64,000 nt of DNA from contig CAZPLT010000002.1 in NCBI GenBank assembly GCA_964587855.1, forward strand, positions 6,676 to 70,675. Direction: 5' to 3'. Within the stretch, counting starts at the first letter, position 1. Each line of letters opens with the position of its first letter. The translations under genes and the position numbers were made by a program. Under the pieces are notes generated by a model. The model saw only the letters and a list, made by a program, of their open reading frames with translations. It was not told the DNA's origin and searched no databases. Source of the stretch: an uncultured Muribaculaceae bacterium (GTDB lineage Bacteria; Pseudomonadota; Alphaproteobacteria; Rs-D84). Shown piece after piece: positions 1 through 9,315 of the stretch.

Positions 1-1874
1 ATAATGGCTTCCGGTGCTTCAGAGTAGTCTTTTTGTCCTTCCTGACGAGAATAAAAGTTTTTCCCAGAATTGAAAGAACCGCGAATACTTGGAATTGTAA
101 TCGCAAGACGTATGTTGCCGTCATCTGACATTTCAAAGTCAACGTCTATGTCCGCACCCGCATGAATAACCCCATCGTCAAAGTCCGTTCCGGATATCTT
201 CATAACCCCAACCGGACGATTGTCTGTCACCGGATGCGTGATGTCGCCTTCCCATATTTTAAAGTCCAACGATCCAACATCGCCAGCTCTCAGTGTGGTT
301 GCGGCTTTGAATTTTTTACGTCCGCGTTTTGGCAATATGTCGCCAGCATTTACAAGATAATCCATAACTTCCGATCCGCCGATTTTATCCAAAGCGGCAA
401 TGCCTACTGAGTGCGAAGCTGGAATAGAATCGATTGTCGCGGCTGTTCGCATTACTGATATTTTACTTGGATCTAGTGCAACACTTTCGCCGAATTCGTT
501 AAACAAAAATGCCTTGAAACTATTCTCGCCGAGTTTTGACAGCACCAGTTCTATTGTCGCACCATCTTTCAAGGCAACTTTCCCCGATGACCAACCGGAA
601 TCTATGGAATCTATTTGGAATTCAAACTTACCTTTGACTTTGTCCGGCAGGCGAATTATCAGTTTCGTTTTTACGTCTGGTGTTCTAGCGATAAAGTCAA
701 ATTGCACATTTACTGCACCCTGTGATTGTACCGATCCGCGCATATTTTTGCGCGCGCGATCTTGCGTGGACCATTCGATTGATTCCGCGAATATGCTTGC
801 GCCTTCGGCAACGGCAGTCATTGGATTGACATCCGTGTTTGCCGGAATACCCAGGGCCTGTGAAACTTTATCACGCAATGGTTTATAACAAGTCGGTCCG
901 CCGACAAAAACAATCCTGGCGACATCGCTTGTTTTCAATCCGGCTTTATCCAATGTTTCGTTTACTGCTTTGATTGTGTCGTCAATCTGATCGGCAATTA
1001 AATCGTTGTACATTTTTCGTGTAATGGAAATGTCGAGATAGATATCTTCGCCCTTATTGTCTTTCATGCGTGCTTCGGCTTCTGATAAACTGATCGTAGC
1101 ATCTTCTTTTGAAGACAAGGCAATCTTCGCCTGTTCAGCGGCCCATGATGCAAGTTGAACCAGTGGTTTGTATTTTGAATCATTCCAAAATTCGTCCGGC
1201 AAATCAAAGTTATCAGACAGCCATGGATATACAACGTTGTCAACCAGCAGGCGATCAAAGTCGCGGCCACCGCACATAGCAATTCCTCCATGGCTTTGCA
1301 AACTCACATGACCATTGATACTTTCTGCCACTGCTACGTCCAGTGTTCCACCGCCCAGGTCATACACTAGAAATATTCCGTCTTCCGGTCTTGTTCTCAT
1401 AACGCTCATGATCGCGGCGACTGGTTCTTGCATCAATGCCACCTTTCCAATGCCAGCCATATTTGCCGCTTGCAAGGTTGCGTCTTTTTGCATCTGATTA
1501 AATGCCGCAGGTGTGGTAATAACAACACCGATGTCTGGATCTGTTTGCATGTCTTCCGACAGGTAGTTGAACAATGTTTTTAGAATCTCGGCCGAGCATT
1601 CTTCCGGCGACATTGTTTTCCCAAGGTTCGGAATATTTATCGGAGTATTTGTTCCCACGAAACGCTTAAATCTTGAAGCGACATTTTCGGGATCCTTTGG
1701 TGTCTGATCATATGCCCGTTTCCCAATATATTTATTTCCGCGCTTGTCTATGTAAATCGCGGACGGGGTCACATCATAACCATCGGTGCTTTTCCAAATT
1801 TTAACTTGCTCGCCGTCATAAGAGCAAATTGCGCTGTTGGTTGTTCCAAGATCTATTCCTATAAAGTTTTTCAT
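1..1874 (-). CDS. Non-canonical Hsp70-family (actin-like ATPase) protein, 3-prime end truncated by window edge
   Basis: Minus-strand frame from ATG at 1874-1872 is open to position 1 with no stop. The ORF track does not list it because it runs off the edge. Translation starts MKNFIGIDLGTTNSAICSYDG and contains YDLGGGTLDVAV, which are Hsp70 nucleotide-binding motifs. The C-terminal part is not DnaK-like. The ATG overlaps the stop of the upstream ORF (ATGA). Confidence 0.8.
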   Translation of the reverse strand, partial: MKNFIGIDLGTTNSAICSYDGEQVKIWKSTDGYDVTPSAIYIDKRGNKYIGKRAYDQTPKDPENVASRFKRFVGTNTPINIPNLGKTMSPEECSAEILKTLFNYLSEDMQTDPDIGVVITTPAAFNQMQKDATLQAANMAGIGKVALMQEPVAAIMSVMRTRPEDGIFLVYDLGGGTLDVAVAESINGHVSLQSHGGIAMCGGRDFDRLLVDNVVYPWLSDNFDLPDEFWNDSKYKPLVQLASWAAEQAKIALSSKEDATISLSEAEARMKDNKGEDIYLDISITRKMYNDLIADQIDDTIKAVNETLDKAGLKTSDVARIVFVGGPTCYKPLRDKVSQALGIPANTDVNPMTAVAEGASIFAESIEWSTQDRARKNMRGSVQSQGAVNVQFDFIARTPDVKTKLIIRLPDKVKGKFEFQIDSIDSGWSSGKVALKDGATIELVLSKLGENSFKAFLFNEFGESVALDPSKISVMRTAATIDSIPASHSVGIAALDKIGGSEVMDYLVNAGDILPKRGRKKFKAATTLRAGDVGSLDFKIWEGDITHPVTDNRPVGVMKISGTDFDDGVIHAGADIDVDFEMSDDGNIRLAITIPSIRGSFNSGKNFYSRQEGQKDYSEAPEAI

Positions 1875-2308
1875 TTGTCTGCCTTTTTTAGTAAAACCGA
1901 ACCGGTTTTGATGATTTTTCCGTTTTGCATGATTACTGGTTCCAGGACCTGGTCAATAACCAATTCATCGTCCTTGTCAAAATCGCCAATGTTGATCGGT
2001 GTGACTGGCATTCCAACATCAAATGGCATCTTGTCCAGTGATGCTATTGTCATGCCAGTGCTGTATAAATATTCTATTGCTTTCTTGTTGAACCAGGCGA
2101 ATTGGCTATGGTATTTGTTTTGCTCGTCATAGTCCAATCGAGATATAAGTTTATCCAAGAGCTTTGGCAGTCGCCATATCTCTATCGCAAACTCAGCTAG
2201 TGCGGCATCTTTATCCGGCACAGCGATTGTTATCTCGTCTGGCGCAAGACTTGTATCAGGCGGGGCGCTTGTTGTGCTTGAATCCGTATCTTTGATCTCT
2301 TCAGTCAT
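1871..2308 (-). CDS. Hypothetical acidic 145-aa protein, translationally coupled to the Hsp70-like gene
   Basis: ORF from the track. Its stop TGA overlaps the Hsp70-like ATG (ATGA). No family recognised. Confidence 0.55.
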   Translation of the reverse strand: MTEEIKDTDSSTTSAPPDTSLAPDEITIAVPDKDAALAEFAIEIWRLPKLLDKLISRLDYDEQNKYHSQFAWFNKKAIEYLYSTGMTIASLDKMPFDVGMPVTPINIGDFDKDDELVIDQVLEPVIMQNGKIIKTGSVLLKKADK

Positions 2309-2409
2309 ATTGTTCCTTATTAATTATAATTTCAAACAATTATATTATATCATATCGGCGCTTAAAACTTCCATAACAAAACCAGATTTAATAGTTGAAT
2401 GACAATCAT

Positions 2410-2763
2410 TCATTTGTTCTTATTAAACCCAAAAAAATCATAGCCCGATACTTTATGGCCACATATTTCGGCGGCGATGGAGGATAGGGTTTTATACGTG
2501 CGCCCGTTGAACGTAAACGCAGAAGGTGCGGTCACATTAACCAGGAATTCACGCCCCTTGAATTTTTTCAACAGCTGAGTTCCCGGTTTTACGTGATATT
2601 TGTTTTTATTTGACCGTGCCGCGCATTCGGCGGGATTCTTTGCATACGCGTTCAGGCGGGTTATGTGCCGCGGTTCAATTTTTACACCGCACATGGCGCA
2701 TTGTTCAGCGTATTTTGCCACACGTTCGCGAAACCCGCGTACATATTGATTTTTGTCTGTCAT
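2410..2763 (-). CDS. Small Cys-containing (zinc-ribbon-like) protein adjacent to the serine recombinase; recombinase-associated accessory protein
   Basis: 117-aa ORF with CAMCG and ECAA Cys pairs. It is divergent from the recombinase gene. Family assignment is uncertain. Confidence 0.5.
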   Translation of the reverse strand: MTDKNQYVRGFRERVAKYAEQCAMCGVKIEPRHITRLNAYAKNPAECAARSNKNKYHVKPGTQLLKKFKGREFLVNVTAPSAFTFNGRTYKTLSSIAAEICGHKVSGYDFFGFNKNK

Positions 2764-2886
2764 TTTGACTCCTTTGACATCAACACTAACGCTTACAAAG
2801 GGCGCGAAGTCCAGTAAATTAGCGCAATTTTTATAATTAAAATATCTTGTCTTATTAACTTGACTAAGGGCGTACGTTAAGCATTA

Positions 2887-4527
2887 GTGTTGTCAGCCAA
2901 AGGGGTTATTATGAAATGTGCTGTATATGTGCGAAAGTCCAGTGAACGTGGGCTGGATCAAGAATTTAACAGCTTGGATAACCAAGAACAGGCGTGCCGT
3001 GCATACATCATGTCACAAACTTTTCAGGGATGGGAATATGTCAAAACATATTCGGATGCGGCCATATCCGGTGGCACAATGGCACGACCGGGACTACGCG
3101 AAATGCTGACCGATATACGTGATGGCAAAATCCAATGTGTACTGGTGTACAAAATTGATCGATTGAGCCGATCCATCTATGACTTTAAACGAATGATGAA
3201 AGAAGACTTTGAACCGCACGATTGTAATCTCGTCAGTATCACGCAATCATTCGATACATCAACCGCGATGGGCAAATTGACATTGAATATGCTGTTATCA
3301 TTCGCGGAATTTGAACGAGAGGTCGCATCGGAACGCGTTCGCGATAAAATGCGTGCTACCAAGGCCAAGGGTTTGTGGACCGGTGGAATGTTACCCCTTG
3401 GATACGATGTAGAATTTGGCAAACTGATTGTAAATACGGCAGAGGCCGCAACAGTGCGCGAAATATTCCAAACATACCTTGAATCCACATCGCTGTCCGA
3501 TTGTCGCGGGCGCCTTATCGACAAAGGTATACATGGTAAAACTTGGATGACCAAGAAAGGAAATCAGAAAGGCGGCAAGATCCTATGCGTGTCGGGAATT
3601 CAACGAATTTTAACAAATCCAGTTTATATCGGCAAAATGCCAAACCGCACAACCAAAGAGGTATTCGATGGTATTCACAAAGCTATCATGGATGAACGAT
3701 TGTTCAATGCCGTGCAAGAAAAACTGGCCAAAAATAACACGCACGGCGATGCGCCGTACACTCGCGGAACCGCGCTGTTGCATAACAAATTATATACAGC
3801 GGATGGCACGGCGTTCAAAAATAAAAAGGGTAACAAGGGACTCAAAAAATACCGATACTATCGCGCCGATAAAACATCACTGCCCGCAGGCGATATTGAA
3901 TCAATCATGACAGATACAATTAAAAGATTCCTGGATTCTGACATGGAATGTCTGTCGGAATCCGCTAAACTTGCATTCAAACAAACCGAATACAGTGACA
4001 CGATGATTCAACCAATGATTGAAAAGATTGTTTATAACCCTGGTAAGCTGACGATATTTATAAACATTGCTGACCTGTCATACCTGAGCCCATTCAAAAC
4101 CGATTGTATAAATCAGAACGCCGACCCGATGCCGATGTACATAACCGATGACGGTAAATACGCGGTCTTGGAAACGCCCGTTTATATAGCATCGCGAACA
4201 TGCATCAACCACCGATGCGATGGCGGCGAAGTATCCATACTGACCAAATCTGAAAACGCAACATTGTTAATCAAGGCGTTATCATACGGCTGGAAATACA
4301 AACAAGATTACGAAAACGGAACACCGATAACGAATATCGCAGAATCCGAAAAGCGCGACAAACGCACGATCTATAAATACCTGAACCTAGCATACTTATC
4401 CCCACGCATCATAAATAGCATCATGTCATCTGAAATTCCCGCCGACATAAACCTGCAAAACCTGTTCACCATCGCATCAAAATACGACACATTCCCAGAA
4501 CAAGAAAAGGTGTTTTATGGTCGATGA
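2887..4527 (+). mobile_element. Large serine recombinase (integrase) of an integrative element
   Basis: N-terminal resolvase catalytic domain (AVYVRKSSERG..SLDNQ, YKIDRLSRS) followed by a recombinase domain and a long C-terminal extension. It lies about 0.9 kb from the tRNA-Val 3-prime end. The true start may be the internal ATG at 2911. Confidence 0.85.
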
Positions 4528-5300
4528 TTGACCTGATTCAATCTTGTGTTATAATCCAGATTATGGAATTTATAATCGTTGTTATTTTTATACTGTTATC
4601 CGTACTGATTATTCGCAGTAATTCGCGTAATAAAAATCATGAATTTGTTTTTATAAACCGCGGGCGACATCACAGAAATCGCGAGTTGCTGGAAACGGTA
4701 ACGTCCGCAGATCGTGGCACTTGGGCTGAACGTGATTTAGTGCTGGATTTATTAAAAAATGATATCCCCGCCGGGGCAATTTTTCATGATTTATATATCC
4801 GAAAACGCAATGGAACATTCTCGCAAATAGATCTGGTTGTTGCGACCAAGGTTGGAATTATCGTTATTGAAGTAAAAGATTATGGTGGGTGGATTTTTGG
4901 AAATGCTCACAATACGCAATGGACACAAGGAATGCGTCGTGGGCAAAAGTTTCGTTTTTATAATCCGATAATGCAAAACAATAGGCATATTGAAGAACTG
5001 CGTAAACAATCTAAACAGTTCCAAAACTTGCCCATTTATTCTGTAATAGTTTTTCATGGTAGTTGCGAATTAAAAGATATTACTTTTGTACCAAAGGGAA
5101 CATTTGTTACCACTGCGCACAGGTTTTTGGACGTTATAAATACAATAACTAACGACTCTGAGCCCGCAAATTACACCGATAAAATGGAAGTTGTTAGAAT
5201 ACTGAAAGCCGCAGTTGAAAATGGTAATACGCCAGATATACAAGAACGACACGCCCAACAAGTTCAAGATATTCTCGGGAAAGACCGCGTTTTTGCATAG
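4524..5300 (+). CDS. NERD (nuclease-related domain) protein
   Basis: QIDLVVATKVGIIVIEVKDYGGWIFG matches the NERD core. The start overlaps the recombinase stop (ATGA). There is an N-terminal TM segment. Confidence 0.7.
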   Translation: MIDLIQSCVIIQIMEFIIVVIFILLSVLIIRSNSRNKNHEFVFINRGRHHRNRELLETVTSADRGTWAERDLVLDLLKNDIPAGAIFHDLYIRKRNGTFSQIDLVVATKVGIIVIEVKDYGGWIFGNAHNTQWTQGMRRGQKFRFYNPIMQNNRHIEELRKQSKQFQNLPIYSVIVFHGSCELKDITFVPKGTFVTTAHRFLDVINTITNDSEPANYTDKMEVVRILKAAVENGNTPDIQERHAQQVQDILGKDRVFA

Positions 5301-5844: not shown

Positions 5845-8030
5845 TATTTTTTCTCCTCGGCCCCAGTTTTTTGATTGATTCCGACCATAGATAGACGGGT
5901 TTTGCCACGTTTATCCACGCCCAGATATTTTACAAATACTTTGTCGCCTTCTTTTATTTTGGCGTCTTCTATTTTATTCAGACGTTCGCCGGTTATTTCA
6001 GAAATATGAACCAATGATTCAAAATTTCCATTCATAATTTTAACGAACAGACCAAAATCTTTCATTCCAGATACAACGCCTTCATAAATCATACCAACTT
6101 CGGGTTCGGCTGTAATGGTTTTGATTCTGGCCATTGCGTTTTCAGCGTCAGCCTTGTCCGTTGCCATAATTTTAACCGTTCCATCGTCTGTTAAATCAAT
6201 ACTGGTATTGGTTTCTTTGGTCAATGCTTGGATAACACTGCCACCCTTACCAATAACATCGCGGATTTTATCAGGATTTATTTTCATTGTAAAGGTCTGT
6301 GGAGCATATTCAGACAATTGTTTACGTGGAGCTTTAATAGCCTTGGTCATAATTCCCAAGATATGCATACGTCCATCTTTTGCCTGTGCCAATGCTTGTT
6401 TCATAATTTCAAAAGTAATAGATGTGATTTTAATGTCCATCTGCAAAGCAGTAACGCCCTTGTCAGTACCAGTTACTTTGAAATCCATATCACCCAAATG
6501 ATCTTCGTCGCCCATAATATCGGTCAAGACTTCGAATTCTTCACCTTCTTTAATCAGACCCATTGCTATACCTGCAACTGGACGTGTCATTGGGACACCG
6601 CCATCCATCAAAGCCAAAGTTGTTCCACAAACTGTTGCCATAGACGAACTGCCATTGGATTCCAAGATGTCGGATACTGCGCGAATTGTATAATCAAATT
6701 GTTCTTTGGATGGCAGCATAGGATTGATTGCGCGCCATGCCAATTTCCCATGCCCAATTTCACGACGTTTTGGTGCGCCAATACGGCCAATTTCACCAAC
6801 AGAAAATGGCGGAAAATTATAATCCAAGATAAAGCGATCATCAAATGCTCCGTCCAAAGATTCCCCAGGACGTGCATCTTTATCATTACCCAATGTCAAT
6901 GTAACCAAAGCCTGGGTTTCGCCGCGTGTAAATAACGCCGAGCCGTGTGTACGTGGCAGTACGCCAACTTCAACCTCAATTGGGCGAACAGTTTTAGAAT
7001 CACGACCATCAATACGTGGTTTTTTATCCAAAATATTACGACGCATAATACGTGCAGTAATAGATTCTATAATTTCGCCAGCCCATGCTTTCTGTAAATC
7101 AGTTGCATCCGCAATTGATGCACGTGCATCTGTTTTAATAGCGTCCAATGCGGCATATCTTTCCAATTTAGCGGAAATTTTTAATGCTTCGCCAATTTGG
7201 TCAGCAAAGCGTTCCAAATCAGATTCAATTGCCTTGTATTCTGGTGCGCGTTCAGCAACATCCCATGCGGCATTTCCAGCTTTTTCTTTTAATTCGTTAA
7301 TTGCGTCAATGACAGGCTGGAATGCATCAAAACCGAATTTAACAGCACCCAACATTTCGTCTTCGGACAATTCGCCTGCTTCGGATTCAACCATTAAAAC
7401 GCCATCTTTGGTTCCAGCAACAACCAATTCCAATTCAGAATCTACAATTTCTTTCTTAGTTGGATTTAACAAATATTTGCCATTTGCATAACCAACACGT
7501 GCTGCACCAATTGGCCCCATAAAAGGAACCCCAGAGATAGCCAATGCAGCAGATGATGCAATCATTGCCAATATATCTGGTTGGTTTTTCTTGTCATATG
7601 AAAAACAAGTAACAACAATCTGGGTGTCATTAGTAAATGTTTCTGGAAACAATGGACGAATTGGACGATCAATTAAACGTGAAATCAATGTTTCGTTTAA
7701 TGAAGATTTTCCTTCGCGACGATCGCGGCTGCCTGGTATACGACCAGCAGACGCAAATTTTTCTTGGTAATCTACGGTCAATGGAAAGAAGTCTTGGCCT
7801 TCTTTGGTTTCGCGTGAAGATACAACAGTTGCAAGAACCATTGTTTCACCCATTTTGGCCATAATACTGCCGGTTGCTTGTTTAGCAAAACGACCAGTTT
7901 CCAATATTAATTTTTCACCACCAAATTCAATTTCTGAACGGATTGGATTGTTCAAGACATTTTTGGGAGTCTTGTCCCCAAGTAAACCGAATAACATTTT
8001 TTTCCCTTTGTTTAAATTTTTATTCAGCAA
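5844..8030 (-). CDS. pnp: Polynucleotide phosphorylase
   Basis: 728-aa ORF with full PNPase architecture (two RNase PH domains, KH, S1). The N-terminus has [22 protein letters not shown]. The true start may be the internal Met at about 7997. Confidence 0.95.
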
Positions 8031-8137
8031 GAGAAAAATTATTCGTTCTTATCAGCTGTATGCAAATAAAAATGAATAATCTTTTTTCTCTTACCGTTTG
8101 ATTATAAATAAAAAACTGCAATTTGCAAATAAAATTA

Positions 8138-8160
8138 AAATCCCCATAAAGGGGATTAAA
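8138..8160 (-). promoter_or_regulatory. Hairpin between rpsO and pnp (rpsO terminator / pnp leader stem)
   Basis: aaatccccataaaggggatt stem-loop immediately downstream of rpsO on the minus strand. The conserved rpsO-pnp arrangement carries an RNase III-processed hairpin here. Confidence 0.6.
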
Positions 8161-8162
8161 AT

Positions 8163-8444
8163 TTATTTACGCAAACCAAGTTTTTTGATTAATGCTTCAT
8201 AATCTGCAGCATTTTTCTTTTTGATATAAGCCAATAATTTTTTACGACGATTAACCATCAATAACAAACCACGTTTCGAGTGTTTGTCTTTATGATTGTT
8301 TTTCATATGTTCTGTCAGGTTTTTAATGCGTTCTGTTAAGATTGCAACCTGGGCAGTTGCGGAACCGCCATTGTCTTTATCGTTGATTTTGTTTTCAGCA
8401 ATAACTTTTGCTTTGATACTTTTAATAAATGTTTTAATCGACAT
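8163..8444 (-). CDS. rpsO: 30S ribosomal protein S15
   Basis: 93-aa ORF; S15 family similarity. Confidence 0.95.
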
Positions 8445-9315
8445 TAATAATCCTTTTTGGTTTTAAGACACCGTTTTCAATTATTCCAATTCCAATAAAT
8501 TCATTATCAGAATAAACACGAACAGAACCATTTTCTGTAAAAGCAGATCTAGTTAAAAAGCCGCCGTGCTGAAACAATGCAGAGTCATTGTTATTCAGAT
8601 TTAAAACCGGAATGTCGCCCAGTCCAAAATCCGCCCGCTGCAAATAATCATTTATCGCAGTGCGCCCGCCATTATTAAACAAATTTTCCAGAAAATCAAG
8701 TGATACCGCATTTTTTATATCAAATCCATTTGTTTTAGTGCGACGAATAGCGGTGCAGGTGGCAATTGTACCGCATTTTTTTGCAATATCACGCGCCAGC
8801 GAGCGGACATAAGTACCACTAGAACACCGAACAATAAATGCAGAATCAGTTATATTTTTCAGGCTATAAATATGAACCAGACGAGATTTAATATCTAATT
8901 TCTCGCCAGCCAATGCCAGTTTATATGCCCGCTGTCCACCCACATGCACGGCGCTGAAATTTGGTGGCACTTGGTCATATTCCCCAATAAATTCATTACA
9001 AATCTTTTGCAAGGTTTCTTTTGATGGGATTTTCAAGCTATCGTCTTGTTTAATAATGCGCCCCGTTATGTCCAGGGTATCCGTTTCGGTTCCCCATTGA
9101 ACAGAAAATTCATATTCTTTATGTGCATCTGGAATATAAGGGATAACTTTGGTTGCTTCATCCAGTGCGATTATTAACAGACCAGATGCCATTGGATCCA
9201 ATGTTCCAATATGTCCAAATGTTTTTGCGCCGAACATACGCGCAATGCGTCCCCCTGCCCCGCGACTGGAAATGCCACTTGGTTTATCAAGTAAAATAAA
9301 TCCTGAATTTTTCAT
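8434..9315 (-). CDS. truB: tRNA pseudouridine-55 synthase TruB
   Basis: [14 protein letters not shown] catalytic Asp motif; 293 aa. Confidence 0.9.

Follow-up and report, generated by a model that had tools for sequence, protein, structure and literature searches.

Introduction

One review of prokaryotic Hsp70 proteins distinguishes three types, DnaK, HscA and HscC, and the association of HscC with the tail-anchored J-proteins DjlB and DjlC suggests that it acts at the inner membrane (PMC8215388). Hsp70-family proteins are also part of predicted defence systems, namely CnuD in CoCoNuT (PMC11090510) and the GAP1-N2 GTPase systems, which bring together an HSP70, a GrpE and a DnaJ-FNIII protein (PMC7159879). 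Here, we analyse an Hsp70 gene and the small acidic gene immediately upstream of it, which lie at the left edge of a 64,000-nucleotide stretch of contig CAZPLT010000002.1 from an uncultured gut alphaproteobacterium (this whole stretch is called the window below). The family to which this Hsp70 belongs is none of DnaK, HscA and HscC and is a new type of Hsp70 system. The gene pair probably forms the 5' part of an Hsp70 chaperone machine that is complete in itself and spreads by horizontal transfer. It comprises a full Hsp70, the catalytic site of which is intact, and a partner with a GrpE fold that is translationally coupled to it and co-inherited with it. In the window's lineage the two genes open an operon of four, and the resulting cassette is mobile, sporadically distributed and frequently resident in defence islands.

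Results

The gene pair and its operon

The partner open reading frame (ORF) runs on the minus strand from an ATG at 2308–2306 to a TGA at 1873–1871 and encodes 145 amino acids (aa). The Hsp70 ORF starts with the ATG at 1874–1872 and remains open to base 3 of the window, such that 624 aa are encoded inside it. An earlier note on this DNA had described an ATGA overlap between the two frames, which is indeed present at 1871–1874 on the minus strand, and had read the Hsp70 motifs IGIDLGTTNS (aa 5–14) and DLGGGTLD (aa 172–179), both of which are found. The partner is acidic, with a pI of 4.48 and 26 Asp and Glu residues versus 16 Lys and Arg residues. In 74 related loci, the partners of which are 33–72% identical to that of the window, the two genes overlap by 4 nt in most cases and the gap between them never exceeds 6 nt. 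Because the junction spacing is kept in this way, the ATGA overlap is not a chance event.

An exact-sequence look-up of the partner returned five public contigs, from which the complete Hsp70 gene was recovered, as the earlier note had proposed. The full protein has 831 aa (contig L001, 3615–6110) and is identical to that of the window at all 624 shared residues. On L001 it is followed by a 466-aa AAA ATPase and then by a 596-aa protein (7512–9302), with the genes 3–5 nt apart or overlapping, and the whole cassette occupies 6.1 kb of this contig (3181–9302). Exact copies or 90%-cluster mates of both proteins are on record on the same 75.7 kb NCBI contig as the proteins of the window itself, and the AAA gene and the fourth gene are therefore placed just past the left edge of the window. 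The proposed two-component module consequently holds in so far as the partner is conserved and coupled to the Hsp70, but in the window's clade the operon comprises four genes. Between contigs L002 and L001 the partner and the fourth protein are 100% identical, while the Hsp70 and the AAA ATPase are only 94–95% identical, a contrast that hints at recombination inside the cassette.

Domain structure of the Hsp70

The protein has the features of the Hsp70 superfamily: an actin-like ATPase domain in which both phosphate motifs (phosphate-1 and phosphate-2) and the catalytic D/K/E/D/T residues are present. The Pfam HSP70 model matches aa 5–364 (E = 5.8e-60) and leaves aa 365–624 unmatched. Asp8, Lys70, Glu150, Asp172, Thr177 and Asp179 are invariant in 31 homologues; their equivalence to Asp8, Lys70, Glu171, Asp194, Thr199 and Asp201 of DnaK was assigned by reading the motifs. 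Since these catalytic residues are invariant, the protein is expected, as far as its sequence tells, to be an active ATPase.

In the AlphaFold2 model (mean predicted local distance difference test score, pLDDT, of 79) the nucleotide-binding domain (NBD; aa 1–365) is followed by a β-rich domain (378–475), an eight-strand β domain (490–602) and a set of helices (620–812). A Foldseek search of the PDB with this model returns full-length DnaK, BiP and Ssb over 640–800 aligned columns. Using hhalign, aa ∼489–590 align onto residues 398–486 of DnaK with E values of 0.0015–0.0035. The score of 28.6 compares with 13.6 ± 2.4 for shuffled sequences, none of 200 shuffles reaches it, and the alignment is unchanged when DnaK is taken from the Escherichia coli record. 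The register is visible by eye, with ..GADIDVDFEMSDDGNIRL.. in the Hsp70 facing ..PQIEVTFDIDADGILHV.. in DnaK. Searches with the C-terminal 464 aa (hidden Markov models, HMMs, and phmmer) and with a 31-sequence family profile against the PDB give NBD matches only. The earlier statement that the C-terminal two thirds do not resemble a substrate-binding domain (SBD) or lid is thus true of ordinary HMM searches, which are blank past aa 364, but does not hold at the level of fold and profile, where the model, Foldseek and hhalign agree on an SBDβ-like domain and helices. Compared with the canonical architecture, an extra domain precedes the linker-like motif. The Hsp70 plan is probably retained, with a domain added ahead of the linker-like TIDSIPASHSVGI and with a lengthened helical tail.

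The protein scores far below the NCBIfam equivalog cut-offs for DnaK (214.8 versus 648 bits), HscA (197.8 versus 620) and the YegD-type PRK11678 (46.5 versus 331), in agreement with its description as a non-canonical Hsp70. The query matches at least 7,800 sequence clusters; among the top 120, nearly every protein is 828–834 aa long, and the source names of family members are 'Hsp70 family protein' or 'DnaK' only.

A GrpE-like fold in the partner

The AlphaFold2 model of the partner (pLDDT of 84) shows two helices followed by a small β domain, which corresponds to the bundle helices and C-terminal β domain of the GrpE fold. When it is compared with the whole PDB using Foldseek, ranks 1–9 are all GrpE or GrpEL1 chains from five organisms, most of them in Hsp70 complexes, with probabilities of 0.72–1.0. 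The top match is 9bls chain C (E = 1e-3, probability 1.0), followed by 1dkg, 8gb3, 4ani and 3a6m. The C-terminal half also recalls GrpE by eye, with the pattern ..G.PFD...H/M.A......V..V...G......V.R.A.V.V.K. The absence of a grpE gene nearby, which the earlier note had cited in stating that the locus is not a chaperone operon, is therefore not upheld, as the partner itself carries the GrpE fold.

At the sequence level the relation is faint. Pfam GrpE is the commonest weak match in the family (ten of 25 members, best E = 0.0019, sub-threshold); the PF01025 gathering threshold is not reached and the partner of the window is itself unmatched in Pfam. The partner profile finds no match in the PDB. 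The HMM searches of the Hsp70 C-terminal region and of the partner, which had been suggested as a check, accordingly gave no match for the former and only weak GrpE matches in the family of the latter.

The partner family comprises ∼3,100 clusters at 90% identity and 794 at 50%, all of which are annotated as hypothetical and carry no Pfam domain. The N-terminal tail is missing from most homologues, which are 113–131 aa long; conservation is confined to aa 33–145, and the acidic tail is particular to the window's lineage. Among the longer family members P0261 (350 aa), P0276 (529 aa) and P0337 (508 aa), one has two copies of the domain and others have long N-terminal extensions.

On the basis of the model, we conclude that the partner is probably a minimal, highly divergent GrpE-type factor that lacks the long N-terminal helix of canonical GrpE. 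Because it combines this fold with an invariably immediate upstream position and a stop/start overlap, it would serve as the dedicated nucleotide-exchange factor of the Hsp70 and would be produced in fixed proportion to it. The support for an action on the Hsp70 NBD is the genetic coupling.

The AAA+ ATPase and the fourth protein

The AAA ATPase contains one classical AAA module (PF00004, E = 1.4e-29) preceded by an N-terminal domain of 225 aa. The sequences GKPGTGKT, IIIIDEME and RTGRFD are present, and with Walker A, Walker B and the arginine finger the protein belongs to the classical clade of AAA+ ATPases. The best PDB matches are VAT (1.5e-53), Cdc48, p97 and Afg2.

The fourth protein (596 aa) carries a C-terminal transmembrane (TM) anchor in the window's clade and begins with the pattern NPFYILGATPRD..I.ELA.......D......AR..LT.PRKR..AE..W. 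and shows nothing significant in Pfam, NCBIfam or the PDB, or when compared with DjlC. Using hhalign, its positions 7–63 align onto positions 6–74 of a J-domain profile, with the HPD loop deleted (score 17.6, E = 0.009); this profile was made from seven J-domain sequences, of which that of DnaJ matches the E. coli record. One in 300 shuffles reaches the score, whichever side is shuffled. We treat a 'J-like, HPD-less' fourth protein as a lead suggested by sequence and not as a finding. The C-terminal TM segment is found only in the clade that has no separate TM/PG_binding_1 protein (homologues on L008–L014), which suggests that membrane anchoring is provided in one of two alternative ways.

Conservation and distribution of the cassette

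One genome per species was scanned with two C-terminal peptide patterns, covering 185,579 species. Relatives of the Hsp70 are present in 196 of these, which is a lower bound, and are spread over many phyla with C-terminal identities of 47–77%. Of the 196 loci, 80 were read. The order partner–Hsp70–AAA–fourth gene is kept in nearly all of those that are complete, in more than ten phyla: the taxa include Bacteroidota, Verrucomicrobiota, Clostridia, Acidobacteriota, Desulfobacterota, Nitrospirota and Chloroflexota, as well as Hydrogenedentota, Ignavibacteria and Alpha-, Beta- and Gammaproteobacteria.

Half of the loci have an extra gene between the AAA gene and the fourth gene, and in 52 of the 80 a membrane protein with a PG_binding_1 domain is encoded inside the cassette. 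The window's clade, which consists of metagenome-assembled genomes of gut Alphaproteobacteria, Muribaculaceae, Puniceicoccales and Clostridia, is without this gene. The PG_binding_1 protein (L097, 16038–17501; L007, 12944–14506) and a separate 250-aa protein (L089, 12323–13072) have a cytoplasmic N-terminal motif in common, K(K/R)GFSGLSDLVS, through which they may dock onto the Hsp70 or the AAA ATPase or be taken up by either as a client. The Aeromonas version of the PG_binding_1 protein has in addition four Cys-containing repeats (CNYDRQYR..DYY.CLRRE).

More distant Hsp70s are encoded on plasmids of Sinorhizobium and Aminobacter, with 39% identity overall and 24% in the C-terminus. Both plasmids retain the partner (hhalign E values of 2e-17 and 4e-18), and that of Sinorhizobium also encodes a homologue of the first 340 aa of the fourth protein (E = 6e-22). 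Neither has an AAA gene after the Hsp70 gene, and the AAA ATPase is therefore a lineage-specific addition or loss. The deepest conserved core that was found thus consists of the Hsp70 and the GrpE-like factor together with the N-region of the adaptor. That the small upstream gene is kept even beside Hsp70s of only 39% overall identity identifies it as a genuine, deeply conserved partner, as the earlier note had supposed. On pSymA of Sinorhizobium meliloti (L107, 3684–10688), hypothetical proteins of 577, 176 and 86 aa surround the conserved trio.

Mobility and genomic neighbourhood

The copy in the window lies in an island with a serine recombinase, a DUF2924 protein and a NERD protein. Elsewhere the cassette makes up most of the cargo of an ∼12.5 kb element with an integrase, AlpA, NikA and a relaxase, along with PG-binding and YhcG-like proteins; the element occupies several different sites in the chromosome, and the index of the contig collection lists its partner protein in 684 blocks. 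On an IncP plasmid of Aeromonas, the cassette is carried by a Tn7-like transposon and its Hsp70 is split: this copy (Aeromonas caviae pKAM471_1; L007, 8995–11492) is annotated as two coding sequences of 545 and 200 aa and is probably a frameshifted pseudogene.

On a conjugative Polaromonas plasmid the cassette is flanked by ZorAB on one side and by a GajB-type helicase (2e-237) and then an AAA-family ATPase on the other. Six metagenomic contexts contain type I restriction–modification, an Mrr-type type IV enzyme, an E1–E2/JAB protein and BrxR; HsdR, an integrase and Fic are also found as neighbours. The Sinorhizobium relative adjoins a type IIG enzyme and a complete Gabija system (GajA 5e-275, GajB 6e-241), and that of Aminobacter adjoins a RES toxin. 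In a random sample of 137 flanking ORFs, matches to MADS, WYL, type I, II and IIG enzymes and Hachiman occur among ordinary genes. No relatives were found in 50,697 phage records. The survey of defence islands that the earlier note had called for thus reveals frequent residence in defence-rich contexts across the loci that were read, and the view of the pair as cargo of a mobile island is borne out by the adjacent recombinase, the outlying GC content and the neighbourhoods of the relatives.

The island in the window

The features of the locus are collected in Table 1. The GC content of the island (1–5300) is 42.9%, compared with 37.3 ± 1.3% over 5301–64000, where the maximum for a 5.3 kb window is 39.5%. 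The step lies near tRNA-Val and is consistent with a recent acquisition of the island. The serine recombinase resembles CcrB and XisF and scores below both NCBIfam cut-offs. The DUF2924 protein travels with it, and on the related contigs (L001–L004) its gene always separates the serine recombinase from the cassette. The DUF2924 protein shows a weak RAMA-domain/PDC-S14 match and may set the direction of recombination, as a directionality factor, or have a regulatory role. At 4524–4527 a second ATGA overlap couples the stop of the recombinase to the start of the NERD protein, the NERD domain of which weakly matches the N-termini of PglW and MkoA (PADLOC, NCBIfam). A scan for promoters and terminators performs no better than on shuffled sequences, and a scan with Rfam yields tRNAs only.

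Table 1. Features of the Hsp70 locus and the adjoining island, in window coordinates
Feature	Position	Strand	Evidence or remark
Hsp70 gene, 5' 1872 nt (aa 1–624 of 831)	1..1874	-	Truncated by the start of the window
Divergent DnaK-like SBDβ, aa ∼485–605, preceded by linker-like TIDSIPASHSVGI	60..422	-	AlphaFold2, hhalign, Foldseek
Extra β-rich domain, aa ∼378–475, between NBD and linker/SBD	450..743	-	AlphaFold2 strands; no family match
NBD (ATPase), aa 1–365, catalytic residues intact	780..1874	-	Pfam and PDB profile matches cover aa 1–364 only
ATGA stop/start overlap of partner gene and Hsp70 gene	1871..1874	-	Read from the sequence
Gene for 145-aa acidic partner	1871..2308	-	ORF reading; taken as a minimal GrpE-like nucleotide-exchange factor
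Conserved core of partner: helical hairpin (aa 33–83) and small β domain (aa 86–142)	1874..2212	-	Model and alignment
Acidic N-terminal tail of partner, aa 1–32, disordered, not conserved	2213..2308	-	pLDDT < 55
AAGGAA, resembling a ribosome-binding site, 4 nt 5' of the partner ATG	2313..2318	-	Read from the sequence
117-aa DUF2924 protein, its gene being the first on the cassette strand	2410..2763	-	Pfam DUF2924, E = 6.4e-19
Large serine recombinase, divergent from the cassette	2887..4527	+	Pfam Resolvase 3e-37, Recombinase 5.5e-14
NERD-domain protein	4524..5300	+	Pfam NERD 6e-27
tRNA-Val(TAC), edge of the compositionally foreign segment	5459..5534	-	ARAGORN and Rfam

Discussion

Proposed mechanism and alternative explanations

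In the mechanism that we propose, the tail-anchored fourth protein would place the machine at the inner membrane and would select or present a client, which the Hsp70 would capture on ATP hydrolysis. The GrpE-like partner would bring about the release of ADP and reset the cycle, while the AAA+ ring would unfold or extract the client held by the Hsp70. Because the cassette is mobile cargo among restriction, Gabija, Zorya, BrxR and E1–E2 genes, the client is most likely to be a component of an invading phage or plasmid, and the cassette would then act as a defence or exclusion system. Such a purpose is plausible and we put it forward with reserve. We also suggest, tentatively, that the cassette could represent a fourth and mobile type of bacterial Hsp70 system, around which a novel kind of defence against phages or plasmids is built. 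A private chaperone cycle, run by the dedicated Hsp70 with its GrpE-like exchange factor, an HPD-less J-like membrane adaptor and a Cdc48-like unfoldase, would then detect a protein of the invader at the cell envelope and take it apart, or would be set off by it, and immunity would be achieved without nucleases or nucleotide signalling.

Several observations weigh against these proposals. The chief weakness of the defence reading is that it is left without an effector: the cassette shows no recognisable domain of a nuclease, a protease, an NADase or a pore-forming protein. Since a recognisable effector enzyme is absent, action on the membrane or envelope would be the likeliest output. The defence matches in the sample of 137 flanking ORFs are present and not overwhelming, and neither the Hsp70 nor the partner nor the fourth protein is modelled in PADLOC v2.0.0, the matches of which to them are noise. 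As regards the partner, the relation to GrpE rests on the fold. The Foldseek TM-scores to GrpE are low (0.40–0.50, and given as 0.35–0.47 over ranks 1–9), and a search of 1.84 billion representative proteins with the partner profile yields a closed family of 794 clusters that does not reach canonical GrpE. In an hhalign comparison with an E. coli GrpE sequence that was not taken from a record, only the non-conserved tail is aligned. The J-like similarity of the fourth protein is weak, with none of 24 homologues matched by Pfam DnaJ, and the HPD tripeptide is missing from the N-terminal 80 aa of the 24 homologues. The HPD motif is required for canonical stimulation of the Hsp70 ATPase.

The cassette could instead be mobile proteostasis or stress cargo, in which an Hsp70 with its exchange factor and an AAA+ ATPase act as a bi-chaperone and, when heat or chemicals stress the cell, free host proteins from aggregates or refold them, in analogy to the transmissible stress-tolerance locus that carries ClpK/ClpG. 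The parts list of Hsp70, exchange factor, AAA+ unfoldase and possible J-like adaptor does mirror the DnaK–DnaJ–GrpE/ClpB disaggregase (PMC8215388), and carriage on plasmids and integrative elements is a trait of the stress-tolerance locus as well (PMC8290217). However, the SBD is so divergent that HMMs miss it, which suggests a specific client rather than unfolded proteins in general, and the AAA+ ATPase has a single ring in which the ClpB middle domain is not recognisable. Small heat-shock proteins and proteases are not among the accompanying genes; the accessory proteins are membrane or peptidoglycan-binding proteins, and the genes nearby are those of restriction, Gabija, Zorya and BrxR and not stress genes. 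We therefore regard this explanation as rather unlikely. A function that serves the element itself is also to be weighed, for example one in which a protein of replication, transfer or integration, or the envelope, is remodelled while the element establishes itself in a new host. It has a parallel in the action of DnaK–DnaJ–GrpE in lambda, P1 and F replication. The replication of plasmids and phages is known to depend on Hsp70 (PMC8215388). It would fit the share of the cassette in the cargo of the widespread ∼12.5 kb integrase–relaxase element and the peptidoglycan-binding membrane proteins in 52 of 80 cassettes. Yet the cassette travels with unrelated mobility machinery (a serine recombinase, a tyrosine integrase with relaxase, a Tn7-like transposon and IncP plasmids) and also occurs in chromosomal defence islands without transfer genes; it is consequently not tied to the life cycle of any one element, and we consider a role of this kind decidedly unlikely.

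A small acidic upstream gene that is translationally coupled to a larger gene in a mobile island is also what would be expected of an addiction or toxin–antitoxin-like pair, with the small protein neutralising a toxic Hsp70-like ATPase. This is highly improbable, as the partner has a GrpE fold and not an antitoxin-like DNA-binding fold, the Hsp70 appears to retain all of the chaperone domains and two to three additional operon genes are conserved. Hardly any credence can be given to a housekeeping chaperone operon, with an orthologue of DnaK, HscA or HscC that merely adjoins the island. Only the N-terminal domain, which is clearly that of an Hsp70, speaks for it, while the scores lie far below the equivalog cut-offs (rounded, 215 versus 648 for DnaK and 198 versus 620 for HscA) and the relatives occur in 196 of 185,579 species genomes in scattered phyla, always in variable or mobile contexts; the segment in the window is, moreover, a GC outlier. 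A conserved core chaperone operon in relatives, which the earlier note had named as part of what would overturn its view, is contradicted by this sporadic, mobile distribution.

A mobile chaperone machine, with defence or exclusion as its possible purpose, thus remains the explanation that we prefer. The Hsp70 family is a distinct and widely transferred type with an exchange factor of its own, a trait that specialised bacterial Hsp70s do not usually have. Its steady residence near Gabija, Zorya, restriction and BrxR genes, and on small mobilisable elements that are common in gut metagenomes, makes the cassette a concrete defence candidate. If it is a true defence system, a chaperone cycle could lie at the heart of bacterial immunity, as the part that senses or the part that executes, which would echo the sensing of phage through host DnaJ by bNACHT25 (PMC12169576). 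If it is not, it still provides a compact natural Hsp70/exchange factor/AAA+ machine with an odd inserted domain that would be useful in the study of Hsp70 allostery.

Comparison with known systems

A full-text literature search found no published description of the cassette, and a preprint on serine recombinases and defence does not mention it. NCBIfam release 20 and Pfam contain no model for the partner, the Hsp70 C-terminus or the fourth protein.

Among defence systems, IetAS resembles the cassette in its ATPase: the cassette AAA protein matches IetA of PADLOC (6e-25) and IteA of NCBIfam (7e-24) over the AAA module. The IteA score is 84.6 bits, however, against a cut-off of 510, the N-terminal 225-aa domain differs and the cassette has no IetS subtilase. 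An identification as IetAS is rejected, since the equivalog score is not reached and the protease gene is absent from the cassette. The CoCoNuT and GAP1-N2 systems are built on McrBC-type or TRAFAC GTPases and tubulin, none of which are found in or beside the cassette, and CnuD has degenerate Walker motifs, whereas the cassette Hsp70 has an intact ATPase site. By the published definition of CoCoNuT type III (PMC11090510), the cassette is not a member, as the McrBC-type GTPase CnuB/CnuC and DUF2357 are absent from it and from the surrounding 20 kb in the contexts that were read. The GTPase–tubulin–HSP70 systems are likewise excluded, their core genes being absent.

The closest architectural analogue is HscC with DjlB and DjlC of E. 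coli, where a specialised, sporadic Hsp70 is likewise found beside a tail-anchored co-chaperone. The fourth protein in the window's clade resembles DjlB and DjlC in its C-terminal TM segment and may do so in its weakly J-like N-terminal region, although it is not detectably homologous to DjlC (hhalign E = 0.4). HscC has 556 aa and no inserted domain, and on the E. coli record hscC has no adjoining GrpE-type or AAA+ gene.

Compared with the DnaK system, the cassette is mobile and sporadic rather than core. Its Hsp70 is not an orthologue of DnaK or of any other curated Hsp70 family, has a β domain of ∼100 aa after the NBD and ends in a helical C-terminus of ∼200 aa. The exchange factor differs from GrpE in that it is without the long N-terminal helix and beyond the reach of sequence profiles, the J-like protein differs from DnaJ in having no HPD motif, and the AAA+ ATPase is a single Cdc48/VAT-like ring, unlike ClpB. 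The two systems nevertheless correspond in their NBD catalytic residues, SBDβ-like domain, helical lid-like region and GrpE-fold partner and, reminiscent of the cooperation between DnaK and ClpB, an AAA+ ATPase is encoded alongside the cassette Hsp70.

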